A stretch of 64,000 nt of DNA from Candidatus Woesearchaeota archaeon (GTDB lineage: Archaea; Nanobdellota; Nanobdellia; Pacearchaeales; GW2011-AR1): assembly GCA_964479755.1 (NCBI GenBank), contig CAYZNI010000002.1, positions 5,633 through 69,632 on the forward strand, written 5' to 3'. Under the pieces are notes generated by a model that worked only from the letters and a program-made list of their open reading frames with translations, searched no databases and had not been told where the DNA came from. Below are positions 1,541 to 63,068 of this stretch, in pieces. Position numbers and translations under genes: made by a program. Position 1 is the stretch's first letter, and each line of letters starts with the position of its first letter.

Positions 1541-2341
1541 ATGACGAGAGAAATCGAACTATATGAAATTCCAGAAGTCCCGGAAAGAGCAGAAGTCTTA
1601 GATGATTCTCTTTTGCCAAAGTACAACGATTCTTTCGCTGGCTGGAACGAGCGCGCAAAAGCAACACTTGGAAAACTGGCAAGCACTAACGGCGAAATGG
1701 TTGGTTCAAGTCCTCTTATGTTTGTCCGTATGCACAATGCAGGAATTCTTCCAAATGGAAAAAGATTAGCAACAAGACAGGATTTACAAAAAGCAATTGA
1801 CATCTACGCAAAAAAATATAGCGGCGCAAGCTTTACAAAAGGAATTTACACTGATTTTGGCTTGGCATTAAGAACGGCTGGCGATTCTTATGCTCCAAAT
1901 GACAATTTAGCAAAAAAACTTTCCAAGCAATTAGAGCAAAGAGGAATCAAATTAGGCGAAGGAGTTTTAATTCCAATTTCAGCTTTGAAAGATAGCGAAG
2001 ATTCAAATGAAGCTTATGGTCTAACTCTTGATTTAAACGACTCTACAACAAAGGATACAATTAGAGATTTGAGAGATTTCAAATGGGACTTCCAAAGAAA
2101 TAAAGGACTCGCCTGTGCGTGTCGCAGCGACAGGGACTGGTACTCTGTCAACGAGGTCTTGGGCAGGTCTTACGGCGTTGGCAGGGGGGTCGTTGTTCGT
2201 GCCGCAGGCACGCCGCAAAAAATTTTGGAGCAGAAATTAACTGATTATGCCAGACAACTTGCAGAGTCAAGAGAACAATATAACAAAGGATTAATTCAGT
2301 TAAAAGCAAAGATTGATGCAGAACTGCGTTCAGCACAATAA
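1541..2341 (+). CDS. DGR variable (target) protein with the variable repeat at codons ~190-216; no signal peptide. A C-type-lectin/FGE-like fold is possible but cannot be verified from sequence alone.
   Basis: Contains VR 2109-2186, which matches TR 2500-2577 except at 15 positions, all adenines in TR. The VR segment LACACRSDRDWYSVNEVLGRSYGVGRG aligns with TR-encoded VACAYRNDRNWNSNNENLDRSNDNGRM (AAC codons diversified). Confidence 0.8.
   Translation: MTREIELYEIPEVPERAEVLDDSLLPKYNDSFAGWNERAKATLGKLASTNGEMVGSSPLMFVRMHNAGILPNGKRLATRQDLQKAIDIYAKKYSGASFTKGIYTDFGLALRTAGDSYAPNDNLAKKLSKQLEQRGIKLGEGVLIPISALKDSEDSNEAYGLTLDLNDSTTKDTIRDLRDFKWDFQRNKGLACACRSDRDWYSVNEVLGRSYGVGRGVVVRAAGTPQKILEQKLTDYARQLAESREQYNKGLIQLKAKIDAELRSAQ
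2109..2186 (+). repeat. DGR variable repeat (VR)
   Basis: 78 nt aligned to 2500-2577 with 63/78 identity. All 15 mismatches are A in TR versus G/T in VR, and there are 0 non-adenine mismatches. Codons are in the same phase in both copies. Confidence 0.85.
2198..2212 (+). promoter_or_regulatory. GC-rich hairpin (cgtgcc-gca-ggcacg) 12 nt downstream of VR, preceded by a G-run (IMH-like); DGR target-recognition element candidate
   Basis: Perfect 6-bp stem with a 3-nt loop immediately 3' of the VR/IMH-like ggcagggggg. No equivalent hairpin follows the TR. Confidence 0.5.
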
Positions 2342-2426
2342 TTATAAGTTCTAATTTTCTTATAATCTTCCTAGCCACAAAACGGCTGGGCCACACGCTT
2401 TTTTGCTACGGCTTTCTAAGAAAGTC

Positions 2427-2434
2427 ATAAAATA
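2427..2434 (+). promoter_or_regulatory. putative TATA box for the TR-RT transcript
   Basis: The sequence ataaaata lies ~70 nt upstream of the TR, so the predicted TSS (~2455) sits just upstream of the TR. Confidence 0.3.
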
Positions 2435-2499
2435 CAGCTGTGACCTCTCCTAATGGGAACGAAACAGCAGTGATATGAAGGTAAAAGAGCTAGAAGTTG

Positions 2500-2577
2500 T
2501 CGCCTGTGCGTATCGCAACGACAGGAACTGGAACTCTAACAACGAGAACTTGGACAGGTCTAACGACAATGGCAGAA
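2500..2577 (+). repeat. DGR template repeat (TR)
   Basis: Adenine-rich (26 A) copy of the VR. It lies immediately 5' of the RT start codon and inside the over-extended ORF 2475..3158. Confidence 0.85.
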
Positions 2578-3645
2578 TGACTCGGCTGGCTAGGATTATG
2601 ATGGAAAGTCTATACGAGAAGATTTATGATTTTGACAACTTGTTTTTAGCTTACAAAAAAGCGCGCGCTGGAAAAACTCGCCGCGCTTACGTAATAGAAT
2701 TTGAAAAATACTTGGAGAGAAATCTTTTAGATTTACATTTTGAACTGAAAAATAAATTTTATTCACCTCTGCCAATGCAAACTTTTATTTTGCGTGACCC
2801 GAAAACTAGAAAAATTTCCAAATCAGATTTTCGCGACAGAATTGTACATCACGCAATCGTAAACATCTTAGAGCCGATTTTTGAGAAATCTTTTATTCAT
2901 GACTCCTGCGCAAACAGAAAAGGAAAAGGAACTTTGTTTGCTATTACACAATTTGAAAAGTTTATGCGTACAGTGTCAAAAAATAATACCTCTCCTTGTT
3001 TTATCTTCAAGGCAGACATCAAACATTATTTTGAAGAAATCAATCACGAAATACTCTTGCAACTCATAAGAAGAAAAATTACAGATGAAAAAATAATTTG
3101 GCTCATTGAAAAAATCGTTAAGCCGAATTACTCTTGTAGAGAGAGAGAGAGAGAGTAATGTCGCCGCCGAAGGCGGCAGAGGAATGCCTTTAGGCAATTT
3201 AACATCACAGTTTTTCGCTAATGTTTATCTTAACAAGTTAGATAATTATGTAAAACGCAATTTGCGAGCAAAAAATTACATAAGATATGTTGACGATTTT
3301 GTAATTCTGCATAATTCTAGAAAACAGCTTCTTCTGTGGAAATTTAAAGTAGAAAATTTCTTAATTCATGAGTTGAAATTAGAACTTCATAAAGGCAAGT
3401 CTAAAATAATTTCTTTGCATCGAGGAATAGATTTCGTTGGCTTCAGGAACTTTTATTCCCACAAATTATTAAGAAAAAGAAATGTTAGAAAAATTCTAGT
3501 AAAAATTGATAATTATCACAGAAATAAACTAATGAAAGAGGAAATGTTAGAAATTTTTCAAGACTGGAACGCCTACGCAAAATGGGCAAACACTTTCAAG
3601 CTAAGAAAGCAAATTGTGCGAGAGATTTACAAAAGAAAGCAATAA
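2577..3645 (+). CDS. DGR-type reverse transcriptase; reading frame broken at the (AG)9 tract (N-part 2577..3158 in frame 0, C-part continues in the +1 frame to 3645)
   Basis: RT motifs 1-2 (SDFRDRIVHHAIVNILEP, GKGTLFAI, FKADIKHYFEEI) are upstream of the break. Motifs 3-5 (GMPLGNLTSQFFANVYL, YIRYVDDFVIL) are downstream. Removing one AG unit restores a single ~355-aa ORF. Confidence 0.8.
3138..3155 (+). repeat. (AG)9 dinucleotide tract inside the RT gene at the frameshift point
   Basis: The tract agagagagagagagagag is followed by the in-frame taa. (AG)8 would give a continuous RT. Confidence 0.9.
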
Positions 3646-5075: not shown

Positions 5076-5090
5076 CGAAAGGTTTATATA
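5076..5090 (+). promoter_or_regulatory. BRE/TATA promoter (cgaaaggTTTATATA) for the TrmB-family regulator gene
   Basis: Centred 26 nt upstream of ATG 5113. It forms a divergent inverted pair with 5030-5045. Confidence 0.5.
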
Positions 5091-5112
5091 GTACCAATTA
5101 TGTTGTCCCTTT

Positions 5113-41015: not shown

Positions 41016-41725
41016 TTATGGCTCAAACAACAAGACAAACAGAAGTTCCAGAATTAGTTTTAAAAAATCCTAGAGGCTACATCCAAATTTCTCAAGATGA
41101 CTCTCTAATCGCGATTGAAGAAACTCACGGAGACCAGGCAACTAATGTGCAATTAAAGAGTCTTGCACAAGAAAATATGCAAATGCCTTCTATTTTAAGA
41201 TTTATGACTCACCGAAATAATGTGTTTCAAGCAGTACAAGGATATAGACAGCTTCTTTATGCCGACGGAACTCCAGTCAATGATGCTGTTAAAAAAGACT
41301 TATGGTATCTTTTATCTAGAAATTGCTGGATAAGATTAAACGGAAAATTTGTTACCGATGAACAAGATACCCAGGGTGTTTTTTGGTATCTTGAAACGGA
41401 TTTGCGAGTTACACCAGAAGGATTTTTAGTCGGAAAACGCAAACCTTTGGATACAGCAACCATTCATGAAAATTGTTACATGACTTTAGAATTAAATTCG
41501 CAAGGTCTTCCAATTAAGAGATCGCCAGAAAAAAGTTATGATCCAAATAAAAATATTTATTTTCAAAGCCCGAGAGATGATGCCATCCCCAGGTTCTGTG
41601 CGACGTCAAATAGGGCAAACTTGCTTTGTGGCTGGGCCGATTGCGACATCAGCCCCTCGCTCAGAGTTTTCGCTAGCGTTAATGGTGCTAGCAATATTGT
41701 AAGTATTTTAAGAGGTGGAAAATAA
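41012..41725 (+). CDS. hypothetical 237-aa protein inserted between uS3 and uL29
   Basis: ATGA overlap with rps3. Its stop is 1 nt before the SD-like gaggtgg and ATG of rpl29. The composition (Q/W/C-rich, few K/E) is unlike its neighbours. Confidence 0.5.
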   Translation: MIMAQTTRQTEVPELVLKNPRGYIQISQDDSLIAIEETHGDQATNVQLKSLAQENMQMPSILRFMTHRNNVFQAVQGYRQLLYADGTPVNDAVKKDLWYLLSRNCWIRLNGKFVTDEQDTQGVFWYLETDLRVTPEGFLVGKRKPLDTATIHENCYMTLELNSQGLPIKRSPEKSYDPNKNIYFQSPRDDAIPRFCATSNRANLLCGWADCDISPSLRVFASVNGASNIVSILRGGK

Positions 41726-41726
41726 A

Positions 41727-41936
41727 ATGGCTCTAATAAGAATGAAACAAATCCGCGCAATGTCCGACGCAGAAAGAAAAACAAAATTAAATGAGCTAAA
41801 AATGGAATTAATTAAAGGTTCAGTGACTGCGAACAGAGCAACTGCAAAAACCAAAGAGATTAAAAGGGCAATTTCACGCTTAAATTCGGTCAGCAAGTCT
41901 TCCCTAAAAGGGAAAGAGGAGTTGAAAAATAAATAA
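41727..41936 (+). CDS. rpl29: ribosomal protein uL29
   Basis: MALIRMKQIRAMSDAERKTKLNELKMEL…; start reassigned from 41715. Confidence 0.8.
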   Translation: MALIRMKQIRAMSDAERKTKLNELKMELIKGSVTANRATAKTKEIKRAISRLNSVSKSSLKGKEELKNK

Positions 41937-42232
41937 TGGATTCAGAAGAATTCAGCCTACCATCAAGCACAGATGTGTTTGAGGAAATCGCTAAAAGCGA
42001 GCAGCGGATAAAGGTAAGCACCGTCGCCAGGAGATACGGAAAAAAAATAACACTGGTCGAGGGTTTTGACAAGCACGTAGACGTGAAGTCTATAGCGAAA
42101 CGTCTGAAAGAAGAGCTGGCCTGTGGAGGCACAGTTAAGAACAACGTGGTGGAACTCCAAGGAGACCACAAGGTAAAGGTACGCCCGATCCTTGTGAAGC
42201 TCGGGTTTTCAGACGACACAATAAGCGATTAA
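41936..42232 (+). CDS. translation initiation factor SUI1/eIF1 homologue
   Basis: …KITLVEGFD…LKEELACGGTVKNNVVELQGDHKVKVRPILVKLGF. Confidence 0.8.
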   Translation: MDSEEFSLPSSTDVFEEIAKSEQRIKVSTVARRYGKKITLVEGFDKHVDVKSIAKRLKEELACGGTVKNNVVELQGDHKVKVRPILVKLGFSDDTISD

Positions 42233-42239
42233 CTCGAAA

Positions 42240-42569
42240 ATGGAAAAGAAAAAAACAGCACAAAAGAAACAGAAGGAAAGCTCTAGCACGAGCAAGAAGG
42301 AAACTAAAATCATAGCCAGAGGCAGAGTCTTTAAAGGTTCCGTAACAAAGAAGTTCCCTAAGCGTGTCGTCATTGAATTCGAAAGAACAGTCTACTTGTC
42401 AAAGTTCGAAACTTTCATGAAAAAGAAAACAAGAATTCATGCACGCCTGCCGGATTCTATGGAAAAAGAAGTCAATATCGGCGACATGGTTCTCGCACAG
42501 GAATGCCGCCCTCTAAGCAAAATGATTCATTTCGTCGTAATTAAGAAAATTGCGGAGGAAAATAAGTAA
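42240..42569 (+). CDS. rps17: ribosomal protein uS17
   Basis: …IARGRVFKGSVTKKFPKRVVIEFER…. Confidence 0.85.
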   Translation: MEKKKTAQKKQKESSSTSKKETKIIARGRVFKGSVTKKFPKRVVIEFERTVYLSKFETFMKKKTRIHARLPDSMEKEVNIGDMVLAQECRPLSKMIHFVVIKKIAEENK

Positions 42570-42997
42570 TGCCAGGCCACGTAACAATCATCAGCGGGAA
42601 AGCAATCTCAGCGCGAGCCACAAGAGGCCTAAATGTGGGCTCAAATGTCAACGCGGCAGACAACAGCGGCGCTAGGATTGTGAGAATCGTCGGAGTAAAA
42701 GGCGGAAAGTCAACAAAAGGCAGACAACAGTACGCAAAAATTTCTGACTGGGTAAAAGTTTCAGTTCGTGCAGGCAAACCAGACATGAAAGGCCAAGTTT
42801 TTGATGCCGTAGTTATTAGGACAAAGAAGCCATACAGACGGGTCACAGGCGAGCGTGTTGCTTTCGAGGACAACGCAGTTGCTTTGCTTAAAGACGAAAA
42901 AGGAAATCCCAAAGGTACTCAAATAAAAGGACCAGTTGCAAGGGAGGTATTGGAGCGTTGGTCATCAGTAGCCAAAATCGCCCAGTTTGTTTTATGA
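42569..42997 (+). CDS. rpl14: ribosomal protein uL14
   Basis: …NVGSNVNAADNSGARIVRIVGVKGG…. Confidence 0.9.
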   Translation: MPGHVTIISGKAISARATRGLNVGSNVNAADNSGARIVRIVGVKGGKSTKGRQQYAKISDWVKVSVRAGKPDMKGQVFDAVVIRTKKPYRRVTGERVAFEDNAVALLKDEKGNPKGTQIKGPVAREVLERWSSVAKIAQFVL

Positions 42998-43407
42998 TTA
43001 GCGGAATTTCACTTTCAGATAAGGAAGTTGAACTTGCAATCAGAGAAGAAAGAATAACAGAAAGATTTGTTCATTTTCTAAATGACTTCTCTATAACTCT
43101 TTTAGAAATAGAAACAGCTGAGTTAGATTTATCAAACCACGATTATCGCGGTGCAAGGATTTGCTACGAAAACGCTTTGGGCCATCTATCAGAGATCTCG
43201 CAGCGAGGGCTGCCAGAGCATTATGGCAAATATTTCTTACCAACTCTTCAAGAGAGAATTAACTCAATTAGAGGTTCTTTGCCCTCTTCCTATTCTCCTC
43301 AAGGTAAAAAAACTCCTACTTTTATTCAGCCTGCAACTAATACTTTAACACCTATAACTGTTCCACCCGCTAATCCTGTCTGGAACATGCTCGGAGGACA
43401 AAGATGA
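42994..43407 (+). CDS. hypothetical 137-aa protein inserted between uL14 and uL24
   Basis: The ATG at 42994 overlaps the rpl14 TGA (ATGA). Its stop overlaps the rpl24 ATG (43404-43407). Confidence 0.4.
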   Translation: MISGISLSDKEVELAIREERITERFVHFLNDFSITLLEIETAELDLSNHDYRGARICYENALGHLSEISQRGLPEHYGKYFLPTLQERINSIRGSLPSSYSPQGKKTPTFIQPATNTLTPITVPPANPVWNMLGGQR

Positions 43408-43823
43408 AACGCGCATTTTCTTCCCAATGGAAATCCTCAAGCAAGCCTAGAAAGCAGAGAAAATATCAAGCTAACGCTCCTTTTCATACAAAGCATAAGT
43501 TTTTAAGTGCGCATCTTTCAAAATCTTTAAGAGAAAAGCATAGCAAGAGATCTCTTCCTGTCAGAAAAGGCGACGAAGTGCTTGTTATGCGCGGCTCTTT
43601 CAGAAAGAAAAAAGCAAAAGTTTCCGAGGTTGATGTAACAAGAACTCGTGTAGTGCTTGAAAACATACAGAGAAACAAGAAAGATGGGACAAAAGTCAAC
43701 GTTTACTTCCATCCAAGCGCGCTTCAAGTTATCAATTTAAACTTAGACGATAAAGAGCGTATTAAGTCTCTTGACAGAGTCAAAAAAACGGAGAAAAAAA
43801 CAAATGCACCAAACAAGGGCTGA
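43404..43823 (+). CDS. rpl24: ribosomal protein uL24 (KOW)
   Basis: …LPVRKGDEVLVMRGSFRKKKAKVSEVDV…. Confidence 0.85.
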   Translation: MKRAFSSQWKSSSKPRKQRKYQANAPFHTKHKFLSAHLSKSLREKHSKRSLPVRKGDEVLVMRGSFRKKKAKVSEVDVTRTRVVLENIQRNKKDGTKVNVYFHPSALQVINLNLDDKERIKSLDRVKKTEKKTNAPNKG

Positions 43824-44430
43824 AACCTCTAAAAAAATACCTATTGAAAGAAAAGGAACGAAATACGTAGTCAGGTCTCTTGGTTCTTTGGAAAATTCAA
43901 TCCCAGTATTGATTGCAATTAGAGAAATGCTTCGCCTGGCTCAACATAGAAAAGAAATCAACCACATGATTCACAATAAAATGCTTAAAATAAACGGCAG
44001 AGAAGTTAAAGACTACAGAGAGCCAATTTATTTGTTTAATATCCTGGAAGCTGGCAAGCATTACATTTTGTCTTTGACAGAAAACGGCAAATTCAAATTT
44101 GAAGAAACGAAATCTTCTTCACAAAGGCTTTGCAAGGTCATTGGGAAAAAAATGCTAAAGGGCAAGAAAATCCAAGTCAATTTGCATGATGGAACTAATG
44201 TTCAGACAAGCGATAAAATCTCTGTAAGCGATTCTGTTTACTTAGATTTGAAAGGAAAAATCACAAAACACGTTGCTCTTGAAAAGGGAAAGTCCTGCTT
44301 CATCATCGCAGGAAAATACTCAGGATTTTCGGCAAAAATTGAATCTGTCGAAGGAAATTATGTCCAAATAGATATTCCGGGCAAAAAAGCTCACACTTGG
44401 ATAAATAAATCTAACCTTATCGTGCAATGA
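43804..44430 (+). CDS. rps4e: ribosomal protein eS4
   Basis: S4e domain order. Start reassigned to MHQTRAET. Confidence 0.75.
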   Translation: MHQTRAETSKKIPIERKGTKYVVRSLGSLENSIPVLIAIREMLRLAQHRKEINHMIHNKMLKINGREVKDYREPIYLFNILEAGKHYILSLTENGKFKFEETKSSSQRLCKVIGKKMLKGKKIQVNLHDGTNVQTSDKISVSDSVYLDLKGKITKHVALEKGKSCFIIAGKYSGFSAKIESVEGNYVQIDIPGKKAHTWINKSNLIVQ

Positions 44431-44951
44431 CTCAAAAACTAAAAACAGAAAACGCAATGAGAAAAATCAAAATTGAGAAAGTAGTTCTTAGCTGTGGCGC
44501 AACTGGGCAGGACTTGGAAAAAGCTCGCAAGTTACTAGAGCTGCTTTCAAAGAAAAAGGCACAAATAATTGCAGCTGGTCCAAAAAGAAGAATTCCTGCC
44601 TTTAACGTCAAGCCAGGCTTGGAGTTAGGAGCGAGAGTTACCCTAAGGGGAAAAGAAGCGATAGAGATTCTCAAGCAATTGCTTGGCGCGATTGACAATG
44701 GCTTGGACGAAGACCAAATTGCAGAAAATGCGTTTTCATTTGGAATCAAGGAGTACATTGAAATTCCTGGTATTGAATACCAAAGAGAAATTGGAATCCG
44801 AGGTTTGAATGTTACAGTTGTTTTCATACGCCCGGGCTTTAGAGTCAAGAGAAAGAAAATCAAGTCCTCAAAAATTCCAAGGAAGCAAATCATAACCCCA
44901 GAGGAAATTATCAGATTCATGGAGGATAACTTTAAAACTAAGATAAAATGA
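44427..44951 (+). CDS. rpl5: ribosomal protein uL5
   Basis: …NAMRKIKIEKVVLSCGATG…. Confidence 0.85.
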   Translation: MTQKLKTENAMRKIKIEKVVLSCGATGQDLEKARKLLELLSKKKAQIIAAGPKRRIPAFNVKPGLELGARVTLRGKEAIEILKQLLGAIDNGLDEDQIAENAFSFGIKEYIEIPGIEYQREIGIRGLNVTVVFIRPGFRVKRKKIKSSKIPRKQIITPEEIIRFMEDNFKTKIK

Positions 44952-45178
44952 CAGCAAGTGATTGGAAAAAAATACTGAAACAATTGAGAGGCAAGCCAGC
45001 AGTTATGAAAAAATTCCTAAGGCACAACAAGCCAAAAGACAGGAAAATGGGAATCGCAGCTCGAAAATGCGAGCGTTGCGGTCGCTTCGGGGCTCATATC
45101 AAGCAATATAATCTAAACCTTTGCCGGCACTGCTTCCGAGAAATCGCGGAAGAAATCGGCTTTCATAAATACAGCTAA
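44948..45178 (+). CDS. rps14: ribosomal protein uS14 (Zn-binding type)
   Basis: CERCGRFGAHIKQYNLNLCRHCFRE. Confidence 0.9.
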   Translation: MTASDWKKILKQLRGKPAVMKKFLRHNKPKDRKMGIAARKCERCGRFGAHIKQYNLNLCRHCFREIAEEIGFHKYS

Positions 45179-45179
45179 A

Positions 45180-45554
45180 ATGTCACAAGATATCGTCGCA
45201 GACACACTGAATGAAATGATGAACATCAAAAGAGCTGGCAAGTCCACTTTGCAGGTGGATAAGCACTCTCAATTGCTCCTCTCAGTTTTAGCGATAGCTA
45301 AGATTCACGGGTATGTCAAAAACTTTTCAGTTTCAGGAAAGAAGTTAACAATCGAAATCTCAAAATTAAACGGCTGCAAGGCAATAAAGCCGCGATATAT
45401 GATAAAAATTTCTGAAATAGACAAGTACATTGCTCGTTATCTGCCAGCAAAAAATATCGGTACAATCATCATTTCAACACCGCAAGGGCTGATGACTCAC
45501 CAAACTGCAATAGAAAAAAATCTCGGAGGAAGCTTGATAGCTTATCTTTACTGA
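45180..45554 (+). CDS. rps8: ribosomal protein uS8
   Basis: …ISTPQGLMTHQTAIEKNLGGSLIAYLY. Confidence 0.85.
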   Translation: MSQDIVADTLNEMMNIKRAGKSTLQVDKHSQLLLSVLAIAKIHGYVKNFSVSGKKLTIEISKLNGCKAIKPRYMIKISEIDKYIARYLPAKNIGTIIISTPQGLMTHQTAIEKNLGGSLIAYLY

Positions 45555-46093
45555 TGAAGCAGAAACTCGAAGAAAAAATCTCAATACCTGAAGGCATCTC
45601 CTGCACATTGGAAAACGGAGTTCTTGTTTGTTCGAAGGGCTCATCTCAAGGACAAAGAAAAATCTCTCTTCCAGAAACTCAAACTAAAATCTTGGGGAAT
45701 GAAATCATATTAACCTGCAAGAAGGGAAACAAGAATCATTACAAAAAAATAAAATCGCAAATAGCCCATATAAAAAATCTATTCTGTGGTTTGGAAAGCA
45801 ATTTTGTCTATGAATTGGAAATCGTTCACGTGCACTTTCCGCCTACTCTAAAGGTTGACGGAAATAAGCTGATAATCAATAACTTTTTTGGGGAGAAAAA
45901 CACTCGTCACGCCGAAATTCTTCCAGGTGTAAAAGTCGACATTAAAGCTTCAAAAATAACCTTATCTTCCTCGGACAGGGAAGCAGCAGGCAAAACTGCC
46001 GCCAATTTCGAGAGAGCAACTTCAGTCAGGCGAAGAGACAAGAGAATTTTCCAGGATGGAATATACATTGTTTCCAAGCCAGGAGCTAAATAA
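45554..46093 (+). CDS. rpl6: ribosomal protein uL6
   Basis: Two-domain L6 pattern. Operon position. Confidence 0.85.
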   Translation: MKQKLEEKISIPEGISCTLENGVLVCSKGSSQGQRKISLPETQTKILGNEIILTCKKGNKNHYKKIKSQIAHIKNLFCGLESNFVYELEIVHVHFPPTLKVDGNKLIINNFFGEKNTRHAEILPGVKVDIKASKITLSSSDREAAGKTAANFERATSVRRRDKRIFQDGIYIVSKPGAK

Positions 46094-46443
46094 TGGCGCA
46101 CAAATTTTTAAGACAGGACTCGCACAGGCACTCTCGCCTCGGCAAAAATCGCAGGAAGAAGCAAGTTTGGAGGCTTCCCAAAGGCAGGCACAGTAAAATG
46201 CGACAGCAGAGAAAATCCTATCCTTCAATGCCTACAATCGGCTATGCCACCCCGAGAAAAGACTCTGGGAAGATTCAAGGTCTTTCACCGGTTTTGGTTC
46301 ATAATCTTTCTGAGTTGAAGGCTCTCTCAAAAACTCAAATCGCAATACTGGCAAAAATCGGAGCCAAGAAAAAGCTTGAGTTGATAAAATTCGCAAATGA
46401 AAATAAAATCAAGATGCATAATGTTCGAGGTAATCTAAAATGA
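46093..46443 (+). CDS. rpl32e: ribosomal protein eL32
   Basis: …VWRLPKGRHSKMRQQRK…. Confidence 0.8.
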   Translation: MAHKFLRQDSHRHSRLGKNRRKKQVWRLPKGRHSKMRQQRKSYPSMPTIGYATPRKDSGKIQGLSPVLVHNLSELKALSKTQIAILAKIGAKKKLELIKFANENKIKMHNVRGNLK

Positions 46444-46892
46444 AATTAGAAAACAAGCGCGAGCTCGCTGCAAGAACTCTTGGAGTAGGCAAAAACAGAA
46501 TTGTTTTCAACATAAATAGATTGTCAGAAATCAAGGAAGCAATCACGAAGCAAGACATCCGCGATCTGAAAAACTCTGGAGCAATAATTGTCAATGAAAT
46601 CAAGGGAAGGAAAAAAATTAAACCCTCTGGTTCCAGAAAACGTTCCGGAAGTTTCAAGGCAAAAGTGAACCAAAGTAAAAAGATTTACATGAGAAATACG
46701 AGGAAATTACGGGCTTATCTAAAAAACTTGAAGAACAAGAAAGAAATCTCAAACGAAACCTTTATAGAGGTTAGAAAAGAAATCAAAGCGAGTAAATTCA
46801 AGACTATTGCATACTTAAAAGAAAGGTTGTCAGCAACGGAGGTAAAAAATGACCAAAACACAAAGACGAAGAAGAAAAGAAGCAAAAACTGA
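46440..46892 (+). CDS. rpl19e: ribosomal protein eL19
   Basis: …KRELAARTLGVGKNRIVFN…. Confidence 0.8.
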   Translation: MKLENKRELAARTLGVGKNRIVFNINRLSEIKEAITKQDIRDLKNSGAIIVNEIKGRKKIKPSGSRKRSGSFKAKVNQSKKIYMRNTRKLRAYLKNLKNKKEISNETFIEVRKEIKASKFKTIAYLKERLSATEVKNDQNTKTKKKRSKN

Positions 46893-47325
46893 TTACAAGC
46901 TGCGCTTTAATCTTTTGAAGTCAAAGAAAGCGCGCCTTATAGTGAGAAAAACAAATCGTTATGTAATCGCGCAAATCATAGAATCAGATATCGCGCAGGA
47001 CAAAGTCCTGGAGTCGGCTAATTCTCGAGATTTATTGGAAAAAGGCTGGCCCAAGGAGAAGTCTGGAAGCTTGAAAAGTCTGCCTGCAGCATACTTGACA
47101 GGATTGATGCTCGCTAGGCACGCAAAGTCAAAACCAAAGGAGCTTGTATTGGATATCGGGATGCACAGAAGCGTTCACGGCGGCAGAGTTTTCGCAGCTT
47201 TGAAAGGCGCAGTCGATGGCGGTCTTAAAATCGCTCACGACCCAAAAACCCTTCCAAAAATGGAAAGAATAAACTCAAATAAATCTCTATCAGGACTAAC
47301 TGATAAGTTAAAGGATAAAATTTAA
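46849..47325 (+). CDS. rpl18: ribosomal protein uL18
   Basis: …RRRRKEAKTDYKLRFNLLKSKKARLIVRKTNRYVIAQI…. Confidence 0.8.
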   Translation: MTKTQRRRRKEAKTDYKLRFNLLKSKKARLIVRKTNRYVIAQIIESDIAQDKVLESANSRDLLEKGWPKEKSGSLKSLPAAYLTGLMLARHAKSKPKELVLDIGMHRSVHGGRVFAALKGAVDGGLKIAHDPKTLPKMERINSNKSLSGLTDKLKDKI

Positions 47326-47327
47326 AA

Positions 47328-48116
47328 ATGGCTGAAAAAGAAAATCCAAAAAACCCAAAGGACTTGATTGAGGCAACACCAGAAGAAGTTGCAGTATTGG
47401 AAAAAGAAATTTCTGAAGTGGAAGTTTCAATTGAGCCTCTTCCAGAAGAGAAAGAATCAGCAAAATCCTCTCTTGGAGGATGGGCTCCTAAAACCGCCCT
47501 CGGAAAAGCGGTAAAGGCTGGAAAAGAAAAAGATATAGACAAAATTCTTGAGAATAACAAGAAGATTCTTGAGCCTGAAATTGTTGATTACTTGTTGCCT
47601 ATTGAGACAGACCTGCTTCTTGTTGGGCAGGCAAAAGGTAAGTTCGGCGGTGGAAAAAGGCGCGCCTGGAGGCAAACACAGAAGAAAACAATGGAAGGGA
47701 ATGTTCTGTCATTTTCAGCAATGGCAGTAGTTGGAGACAGAAAAGGCCACGTTGGAATCGGTTACGGGAAAGCTCGTGAAACTCTGCCTGCAAGGGAAAA
47801 AGCTTTGAGAAGCGCAAAGCTAAGCATAATCAAAGTTAATTTAGGATTCGAATCTCCTGAGCACGAACCGCCAAGCGCAGTTCCTCATACTATTCCTTTC
47901 AAGATTGAAGGCCGAGCAGGAAGCGTCAGGATAAGAATGATGCCTGCTCCAAGAGGCACAGGCCTAGTTACAGGCGACGAATGCAAAAAGATTCTCAAAT
48001 TAGCAGGTATCAAGGATGTTTATTCGCAAACCTACGGCAGTACAAAAACAACTTTCAATCTCGCCCGCGCTTGCATTGATGCCCTTAAGAAAACCCATCT
48101 TGGAGGGGCAAAATGA
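47328..48116 (+). CDS. rps5: ribosomal protein uS5 with ~60-aa acidic/K-rich N-terminal extension
   Basis: …GRAGSVRIRMMPAPRGTGLVTGDE…. Confidence 0.85.
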   Translation: MAEKENPKNPKDLIEATPEEVAVLEKEISEVEVSIEPLPEEKESAKSSLGGWAPKTALGKAVKAGKEKDIDKILENNKKILEPEIVDYLLPIETDLLLVGQAKGKFGGGKRRAWRQTQKKTMEGNVLSFSAMAVVGDRKGHVGIGYGKARETLPAREKALRSAKLSIIKVNLGFESPEHEPPSAVPHTIPFKIEGRAGSVRIRMMPAPRGTGLVTGDECKKILKLAGIKDVYSQTYGSTKTTFNLARACIDALKKTHLGGAK

Positions 48117-48532
48117 TTTTAGTAATTAGAATCTCAGGGGATGTTGGTAAAGATGAGAATCTCTTGGAGACTCTCTACAGGATGCGCCTCAGAAGAAAGT
48201 ATTCAGCTGTTTTGTTAAAACCTTCTCCTCAAAACCAAAAACTCTTGAAAAAAGTCAGGAACTTTGTCGCATTTGGAGACATCGACTCTCAAACTCTTAA
48301 GATGCTGGTTGAAAATCGCGCCAGGCCATTAGAAAAAGGAAAAAAAGTTGATGTTGAAAAAATTGTTTCTGGAGTAGAAACGAAATCTTTAAGTCAGTTA
48401 GGAATCAAGCCCTACTTTAGGCTTCATCCTCCAAGAGGCGGGGTTGACACAAAATTGCATTTCGGCGTTAGAAAAGGCGTTCTTGGGGACAATAAGTCTG
48501 AGATAAACAAGCTAGTGAGGAAAATGTTATGA
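48113..48532 (+). CDS. rpl30: ribosomal protein uL30
   Basis: MILVIRISGDVG…LYRMRLRRKYSAVLL. Confidence 0.8.
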   Translation: MILVIRISGDVGKDENLLETLYRMRLRRKYSAVLLKPSPQNQKLLKKVRNFVAFGDIDSQTLKMLVENRARPLEKGKKVDVEKIVSGVETKSLSQLGIKPYFRLHPPRGGVDTKLHFGVRKGVLGDNKSEINKLVRKML

Positions 48533-62994: not shown

Positions 62995-63068
62995 TAGCCC
63001 TGCGCGGATTCGAACCGCGGTTTATGGAGCCAGAGTCCATCGTACTTGACCAGCTATACGACAGGGCT
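62995..63068 (-). tRNA. tRNA-Gln (anticodon CUG), 74 nt, no encoded CCA
   Basis: The reverse complement folds as a cloverleaf: acceptor AGCCCUG/CAGGGCU, D-stem GUAU/GUAC, anticodon stem AUGGA/UCCAU with loop CUCUGGC, T-arm CGCGG-UUCGAAU-CCGCG, discriminator A. Confidence 0.85.

Follow-up and report, generated by a model that had tools for sequence, protein, structure and literature searches.

The 64,000-nt stretch of genomic DNA analyzed here (hereafter the window; contig CAYZNI010000002.1 of assembly GCA_964479755.1, positions 5,633 to 69,632 of the forward strand) belongs to a Candidatus Woesearchaeota archaeon and carries, at positions 1541–3645, a diversity-generating retroelement (DGR) whose reverse transcriptase (RT) gene is interrupted at a dinucleotide repeat. 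All parts of the element lie on the plus strand: the target gene (1541–2341), which encodes the 266-residue variable protein and contains the variable repeat (VR, 2109–2186); a structured RNA of the Rfam family RT-16 (2370–2498); the template repeat (TR, 2500–2577); and two segments encoding the N-terminal (2577–3158) and C-terminal (3154–3645) parts of the RT. The element is chromosomal, its host is a DPANN archaeon, and it is of the target-TR-RT type that has no accessory gene. Its chromosomal location and host follow from an archaeal ribosomal-protein operon at 41700–48500 of the window (L14, L24, S8, L6, L32e, L19e, L18, L30, L15 and others) and a tRNA gene at 62995–63068 (−), from further archaeal housekeeping genes within the 64 kb, and from the DPANN labels of the RT homologs. 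The original prediction had recognized a DGR here, which is borne out by an adenine-only TR/VR pair and by an RT whose nearest solved relative is the Bordetella bRT; however, it had called the element complete, whereas the RT open reading frame (ORF) is broken at an (AG)9 tract, where the frame shifts by +1. Its statement that no avd lies between target and RT is correct, as no ORF was found there, and no Avd-like Pfam family is present among the 25 listed of the 37 families matched by 37 small window ORFs. Avd is found in 74% of DGRs and is not universal. In type, the DGR is an ordinary member of the published DPANN/Nanoarchaeota systems, a type already known; what gives the locus its value appears to be a pair of clade features known from comparison of sequences, namely an AG repeat that recurs, varies in length and in most cases puts the RT out of frame, and an RT-16 RNA with a putative template-enclosing helix.

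The VR and TR are 78-nt repeats that align without gaps at an offset of 391 nt and differ at 15 of the 78 sites. The mismatches were described as confined to TR adenines, and so they are: ten TR adenines read as G in the VR, five as T, and no other base is mismatched. The probability that all 15 mismatches fall by chance on the 26 TR adenines is 1.8e-9 (hypergeometric), and a degenerate pattern with N at each TR adenine matches only the VR and TR in 64 kb, with 0 matches expected. Both copies stand in codon phase 1 of their ORFs, in line with the identical phasing and AAC-rich TR reported before. The TR contains eight AAC/AAT codons, with 25 of its 26 adenines at codon positions 1 and 2, mostly in AAC codons, which gives about 4e14 reachable protein variants; in the VR, the block encodes residues 190–216 of the target. 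The last two differences, GG at 2185–2186 against AA at 2576–2577, probably do not stem from mutagenesis, because they match the fixed difference between the initiation of mutagenic homology (IMH) and its TR counterpart IMH* in Nanoarchaeota DGRs (TGGGGT versus TGGAAT; PMC4372165). The GG at the VR end would thus probably belong to the IMH, and the TR ends in an IMH*-like GAATGA that overlaps the ATG at 2577. The VR sits in the 3' part of the target ORF with a GC-rich IMH and an inverted repeat: a G-run at 2184–2189 is followed, still within the ORF, by a hairpin or cruciform at 2198–2212 on the plus strand (CGTGCC-GCA-GGCACG, 6-bp stem and 3-nt loop), which is seen in both the sequence and the fold centroid. 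Its loop is GCA, compared to the GRA trinucleotide loop of Nanoarchaeota target-gene hairpins (PMC4372165), and the corresponding hairpin of the relative L001 has a GAA loop. Related cassettes share the same compact order of target, RT-16, TR and RT; in 48 related DGR loci, in frame or not, the VR lies 300–540 nt upstream of a TR adjoining the RT start, with 5–26 VR/TR differences each, all at adenines.

The RT had been described as carrying all canonical motifs, including YVDDFV. The motifs are all present, but they are distributed over two frames. Motifs 1–3 lie in ORF 2475–3158, and motifs 4–7 with the thumb in ORF 3106–3645, one frame over; both ORFs match Pfam RVT_1. The N-terminal part (fingers and motifs 1–3, frame 0) ends with the TAA at 3156–3158, and the C-terminal part (motif 4 LGNLTSQ, YVDD and thumb, frame +1) is annotated by the depositor from Met 3184, so that the deposited gene calls split the RT into 227 and 153 residues. 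Joined at the repeat, the two halves form a 356-residue protein, and neither half of the window RT contains a further stop or frameshift. Comparison of the joined protein with DGR and other RTs placed it with the former: the best solved relative is bRT (PDB 8ub7), with an E-value of 2.3e-45 over residues 11–343, compared to 2e-23 to 3e-19 for the best non-DGR enzymes, a "retron-type" entry (5hhj) and group II intron RTs. Moreover, LGNLTSQ conforms to the [I/V/L]GxxxSQ signature of DGR RTs, which replaces the QGxxxSP of other RTs (PMC7826257), and the equivalent of bRT Arg74 and the motif at the I181 position are also conserved. Homologs number more than 7,000, many of them labelled Pacearchaeota, Woesearchaeota or Nanoarchaeota. 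Judged from homology, translation probably starts at ATG 2598 or 2601; ATG 2475, from which the TR would be translated, was rejected, as it lies inside RT-16 and the homologs start about five residues before LYxKI.

The frame change maps to an (AG)9 simple-sequence repeat (SSR) at 3138–3155 on the plus strand, after which the RT frame shifts by +1 and the TAA follows directly; the window DGR therefore has no intact, expressible RT ORF. Gain of one AG unit or loss of two would restore a single 356-residue ORF. The tract is the only dinucleotide repeat of at least six units in the 64 kb and lies about 1 kb from the VR. By alignment, it occupies a length-variable surface loop just before motif 4 that is absent from bRT, and many intact homologs read RERE or RERERE in this loop. 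The tract is long enough to slip, and a change of one unit alters the frame; length polymorphism with conserved flanks was observed in relatives only.

Among 15 related loci from GTDB species representatives, three (L004, L010 and L016) have an AG run at the same place in the RT, two of which are out of frame at the run (L010 by +1, L016 by −1). A frame-blind scan requiring five AG units, a gap of 1–31 nt and then DNA of GMPLGNLTSQFF revealed 107 metagenome stretches with the tract in the same RT loop. Together with L010, L016 and the window they make up a set of 110 tract loci, which collapse into 79 lineages at 95% flank identity; frame counts were weighted by lineage. The RT is in frame in 13/79, shifted by +1 in 31.5/79 and by +2 in 34.5/79, and the in-frame share departs from the expected one third with a binomial p of 6e-4. 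Tracts of 14–19 nt are in frame in only 3 of 52 cases and those of at most 13 nt half the time. Both RT halves are open in 91 of the 110 loci. Among pairs in which both members are out of frame (OFF-OFF), the ratio of nonsynonymous to synonymous substitution rates (dN/dS) is about 0.14 on either side of the tract, values that are rough owing to saturated dS (~2) but indicate that both halves are maintained by purifying selection. In the closest relatives by target family, L125 and L121, the RT is likewise split at the tract, whereas L001 has no tract and an intact RT. Most DGRs of this clade will be overlooked or scored wrongly by pipelines that depend on an intact RT protein. The tract-plus-motif pattern gave 0 matches in 2.9 million viral contigs, and a viral origin of the tract-bearing RT was rejected on this count.

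One rival account of the broken gene is that the window RT is dead, because the DGR is decaying or because the dinucleotide run was misassembled or misread, with the VR differences left as a fossil of past activity. That the window is represented by a single contig, that the depositor's calls split the RT, that some relatives such as L014 are frameshifted without any repeat, and that the target homolog P0011 is unchanged across 18 contigs with no RT nearby would all agree with this account. The same-loop tract, however, is out of frame in about 84% of the 79 independent lineages, drawn from several public collections (JGI, ENA and NCBI records); both halves are under purifying selection clade-wide; the window halves bear no other lesion; and relatives with out-of-frame tracts have fully diversified VRs. 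We therefore regard a dead window RT as decidedly unlikely. As a general account, a dead gene or assembly error is unlikely because the pattern recurs across datasets and the sequence is under purifying selection; for the single contig of the window it may still hold.

Direct comparison of close relatives revealed that tract length changes at the DNA level. Four lineages show tract-length polymorphism at flank identities of at least 95%, and further near-identical pairs differ only in tract length. L031 and L078, from two different metagenomes, agree fully in the TR and in the 120 nt that flank the VR on either side; between their VRs there are 16 differences, all at TR adenines, and the tract is 18 nt and out of frame in L031 compared to 20 nt and in frame in L078. 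In another lineage, L027 has a tract of 17 nt and L122 one of 25 nt. L064 (13 nt, +1) and L111 (17 nt, +2) also share a lineage, with a 15-nt in-frame state between them, and their VRs differ at 15 sites, 13 of which are TR adenines. L049 was tried as the in-frame step of this lineage and rejected: its tract is 15 nt, but a 2-nt deletion in an ATAT motif 40 nt upstream puts it out of frame. Read together, these pairs imply, at the level of sequence, a common timescale for changes in tract length and for DGR activity.

We think it rather likely that the element is a chromosomal Avd-less DGR in which the (AG)n tract of the RT acts as a hypermutable contingency repeat, and that the window copy is an OFF allele (+1). 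This reading rests on the length polymorphism in DNA, on the lack of a preferred shift direction, and on the conservation of coding sequence on both sides of the tract; the equal frequency of +1 and +2 alleles is as expected for undirected slippage. In the proposed mechanism, the RNA would extend from RT-16 through the TR into the 5' end of the RT and fold such that a long-range helix encloses the template. The RT would copy the TR and misincorporate opposite adenines, and the G-rich IMH and the hairpin would direct the cDNA to take the place of the VR, so that roughly 15 codons would be rewritten in a cytoplasmic binding protein of weakly lectin-like character. Replication slippage by one unit would toggle the RT between in-frame (ON) and out-of-frame (OFF) states; most cells would keep the VR fixed, and rare ON revertants would diversify it. 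With OFF alleles in excess, a silent RT would seem to be the favored resting state. Control over when a DGR mutates its target matters, since uncontrolled rewriting would destroy a working binding site. If the mechanism is correct, a tract that holds most cells OFF while allowing a few to turn ON would offer a simple bet-hedging solution, in which a targeted-hypermutation system is itself subject to a stochastic ON/OFF switch. It would then be the first retroelement with repeat-mediated phase variation, and the Archaea would gain a clear example of the SSR type. In the literature searched, no publication connects repeat tracts or phase variation with a DGR RT.

Immediately downstream of the tract, the window has a second structured element: a GC hairpin at 3163–3177 on the plus strand (GCCGCC-GAA-GGCGGC, about −12 kcal/mol), located 7 nt past the tract and stop codon. 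It raises the possibility of programmed recoding, in which out-of-frame alleles would produce a low constitutive level of RT by ribosomal slippage (−2 or +2 nt, with perfect tRNA re-pairing) or RNA-polymerase slippage, and the AG repeat would attenuate expression instead of switching the gene at the DNA level. The zero-frame TAA of the window comes directly after the tract, and the hairpin starts 7 nt past it; similar hairpins occur at 5–8 nt in L025, L038, L073, L092 and L117. The under-representation of in-frame alleles would also fit, as would the different VRs of L064 and L111, both of which are out of frame. Across the clade, however, the hairpin is not conserved, reaching −5 kcal/mol or lower in 9 of 53 distinct linkers and beating shuffled sequences in 4 of 53, and a conserved frameshift-stimulating hairpin was accordingly discarded as a trait of the clade. 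Nor does the shift have one fixed direction: with +1 and +2 equally frequent, one programmed event cannot serve all alleles. A 15-nt in-frame intermediate between the 13- and 17-nt alleles would account for the VR differences of L064 and L111 without recoding, and tract length clearly changes in DNA. The layout of a programmed frameshift site, with a slippery run, a spacer of 5–9 nt and a stable structure downstream, thus describes the window but not the clade, and we consider recoding rather unlikely. The hairpins at 3163–3177 and 2198–2212 are alike in having a 6-bp GC stem and a 3-nt loop (GAA and GCA, respectively) and in standing 7–8 nt past a purine or G-rich run; as most relatives lack the second hairpin, this likeness may be a coincidence.

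A third account holds that the RT is naturally split: each half would be translated on its own, with the conserved Met of KGMPLGNL as the start of the second, and the two would assemble into an active enzyme for which the frame relation is irrelevant. Hardly any member of the clade departs from this Met, which gene callers take as the start of the second half, and the upstream frame terminates 0–85 nt past the tract. The same Met is equally conserved in tract-less RTs, however, and no ribosome-binding sequence lies at a usable distance from it. The enzyme is one polypeptide in 16% of alleles and in all tract-less relatives, the split point would fall between motifs 3 and 4 within the catalytic core, and the neutral expectation would still be 33% in frame. 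A split RT is accordingly highly improbable.

Besides the roughness of the dN/dS values, several points weigh against a contingency repeat. In-frame alleles make up 16%, compared to 33% under neutral slippage, so that the model needs the added assumption that OFF is favored, and the deficit also fits recoding. The tract, stop codon, 7-nt spacer and strong hairpin of the window form a textbook layout for ribosomal frameshifting. ON/OFF expression and a mixture of tract lengths within one population are predictions of a model built on assembled sequences. Exact-protein look-ups of the target, the RT C-terminal half and a neighboring membrane protein returned no record of a same-strain contig, so activity of the window copy itself is conjectural. 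Finally, the positioning of the template for cis-priming by RT-16 and its helix is a role that we infer.

Three other loci show RT frame changes or breaks of a different kind. In L013 (740–900; GTDB "archaeon isolate DeMMO3_23"), a DGR-type RT shifts frame at a C12 homopolymer in another variable loop (around residue 135), an indication that AG tracts may not be the only repeats to interrupt DGR RTs. L126, a Logan contig with a 55%-identical target homolog and a TR, ends in a G11 run (5083–5093) about 20 nt past the last matched RT residue (residue 181), near the tract position of its relatives; this looks like an assembly break or artefact at a repeat. In L014 (4370–4450), from a Methanosarcinales metagenome-assembled genome, the RT shifts frame where there is no repeat, through either a plain frameshift or an error.

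The 158-nt spacer between target and TR is occupied by RT-16 (Rfam RF03019), which the original prediction had missed. The match at 2370–2498 covers the full-length model (1–158) with a score of 74.9 bits, compared to a gathering score of 50, and an E-value of 3e-11; its 3' end lies 1 nt before the TR. RT-16 exceeds the gathering score in 19 of 20 related DGR loci scanned, and its end is nearly always no more than a few bases away from where the TR begins. Further analysis revealed an inverted repeat that could form a long-range helix around the template. The 5' strand, AUAAUCUUCCUAGCCA (2362–2377, +), overlaps the first RT-16 stem, and the 3' strand, UGGCUAGGAUUAUGAU (2587–2602, +), begins 9 nt after the TR end and overlaps the likely RT start codons ATG 2598/2601. 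In general terms, the first 8–16 nt of RT-16 are complementary to a segment 2–18 nt after the TR. This pairing beats every control window from the RT gene in 9 of 19 loci and ranks in the top tenth in 12 of 19, and relatives show compensatory changes (CCUAGCCA/UGGCUAGG, CCUGGCUAUACU/AGUAUAGCCAGG, UCUUGG/CCAAGA and CUCGGUCAA/UUGACCGAG). The long-range helix and the local first stem of RT-16 are competing structures, and at sites where the distal pairing is Watson-Crick the local stem is prone to G-U pairs. Just before the 5' end of RT-16, the AT-rich stretch 2341–2369 contains TTATAA boxes at 2343–2348 and 2359–2364, the former about 22–27 nt upstream of the RNA, the spacing expected of a candidate archaeal TATA element.

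RT-1 to RT-19 were described by Weinberg et al. (2017) as structured RNAs near RT genes, with RT-10 located in the TR-RT spacer of phage BPP-1 (PMC5737381). That other RT motifs serve DGRs was only speculated there, and RT-16 was left without an assigned role (PMC5737381). RT-16 was detected here in 20 DGR loci (the window and 19 relatives), in each of which it lies immediately 5' of the TR. Assigning it to the DGR RNA would give a function to an orphan Rfam family. The broader proposition, that in a large clade of DPANN archaea the DGR RT is governed by a hypermutable (AG)n contingency repeat (poly-C in at least one other lineage) and that RT-16 is the template-positioning RNA of Avd-less archaeal DGRs, placed 5' rather than 3' of the template, is one that we believe and doubt in equal measure.

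The Bordetella phage BPP-1 DGR (8ub7; bioRxiv 10.1101/2023.10.23.563531) shares with the window the [I/V/L]GxxxSQ motif, Arg74, adenine-only mutagenesis, and an IMH with a hairpin at the VR 3' end. In the Bordetella ribonucleoprotein, a "cPRT Stop" duplex joins sequences upstream and downstream of the TR, and it was predicted in 207 Avd-containing DGRs (bioRxiv 10.1101/2023.10.23.563531). The long-range helix of the window would be its analog, enclosing RT-16 and the TR in an Avd-less element, and would thereby extend the upstream/downstream duplex to Avd-less archaeal elements. The two systems differ in other respects. BPP-1 has Avd and a large structured RNA 3' of the TR (Sp, Rfam RT-10), compared to no Avd and RT-16 5' of the TR in the window; the window TR adjoins the RT start without a spacer, and its RT has an extra 16-residue loop before motif 4 that holds the AG tract. 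In addition, the BPP-1 DGR resides in a phage and that of the window in an archaeal chromosome.

Likeness is also found to the DGRs of Nanoarchaeota (DUSEL4) and their target AvpA (Paul et al. 2015, PMC4372165; Handa et al. 2016, PMC5006420). Both they and the window have a DPANN host, a short internal VR of about 26–27 codons that is not C-terminal, a helical extension of about 46–50 residues after the VR, a hairpin with a trinucleotide loop in the target ORF, and GG versus AA in IMH and IMH*. The targets themselves differ. Unlike the known AvpA, the window target has no detectable similarity to any solved chain in sequence and profile searches over all PDB entries, and it lacks the AvpA motifs GxxVVVYAH, HPxxxPFxG and RFxGV. 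Moreover, the Nanoarchaeota DGRs have Avd-sized ORFs between RT and target, whereas the window has none between target and RT, and neither the AG tract nor an RT-16 element was described for them (PMC4372165, PMC5006420). In gene order, the window matches architecture A of Wu et al. 2018 (TR-RT without accessory gene; PMC5758913), with target, TR and RT on one strand and no avd, HRDC, MSL or CH1. Architecture A makes up 29% of catalogued DGRs, and most DGRs of DPANN and the candidate phyla radiation (CPR) have architecture B3, with avd; that survey makes no mention of repeats or frame breaks in RT genes (PMC5758913).

The tract-bearing RT clade also resembles classical SSR contingency loci. 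Such loci include the CT/AG dinucleotide repeats in outer-membrane genes of Helicobacter pylori and the tracts in phase-variable mod genes (reviews PMC3315296, PMC4700210). As in these genes, the tract of the DGR RTs is intragenic, differs in length between near-identical strains and sets the frame, and its flanks are under purifying selection. Here, in contrast, the host is an archaeon, and the gene that would be switched is itself a mutator, the DGR RT, rather than a surface or restriction-modification gene. OFF alleles strongly predominate, and the switching is a proposal drawn from sequences.

The target protein was predicted to lack a signal peptide, which agrees with the absence of a hydrophobic N-terminus and of any hydrophobic or transmembrane segment. 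The AlphaFold model (pLDDT 81, pTM 0.72) shows a mixed α/β domain followed by a 40-residue C-terminal helix (residues 226–265), and the globular domain may be weakly CLec/FGE-like. Neither the target nor any of its 15 close homologs has a match in Pfam, NCBIfam, or PDB sequence and profile searches, and Foldseek found no significant match for the model in the PDB or BFVD. All 15 close homologs come from DPANN assemblies; their hypervariability coincides exactly with the VR block, which is set among conserved framework residues. A profile search of the family retrieved 481 representatives. In distant members, the domain is found at the C-terminus of Ser/Thr protein kinases, as in P0186, P0192, P0196, P0215 and P0221 (520–580 residues, with the target domain C-terminal to the kinase domain), an arrangement that fits a cytoplasmic sensor or binding role for the target. 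Another member of the family, P0214, has a UVR motif at its end.

The Pacearchaeota homolog P0011 (L127–L130), identical in the 18 contigs, contains a VR-like block, has no RT or TR nearby, and looks like a fixed, DGR-less copy. It adjoins a MazE/PIN pair and a proteasome gene, and the window target likewise stands near a PIN gene. The latter, encoding a PIN-domain toxin (721–1158, −), lies directly upstream of the DGR; upstream of the PIN gene and overlapping it is a 78-residue ORF (1155–1391, −), and the two (721–1391) probably form a VapBC-type pair.

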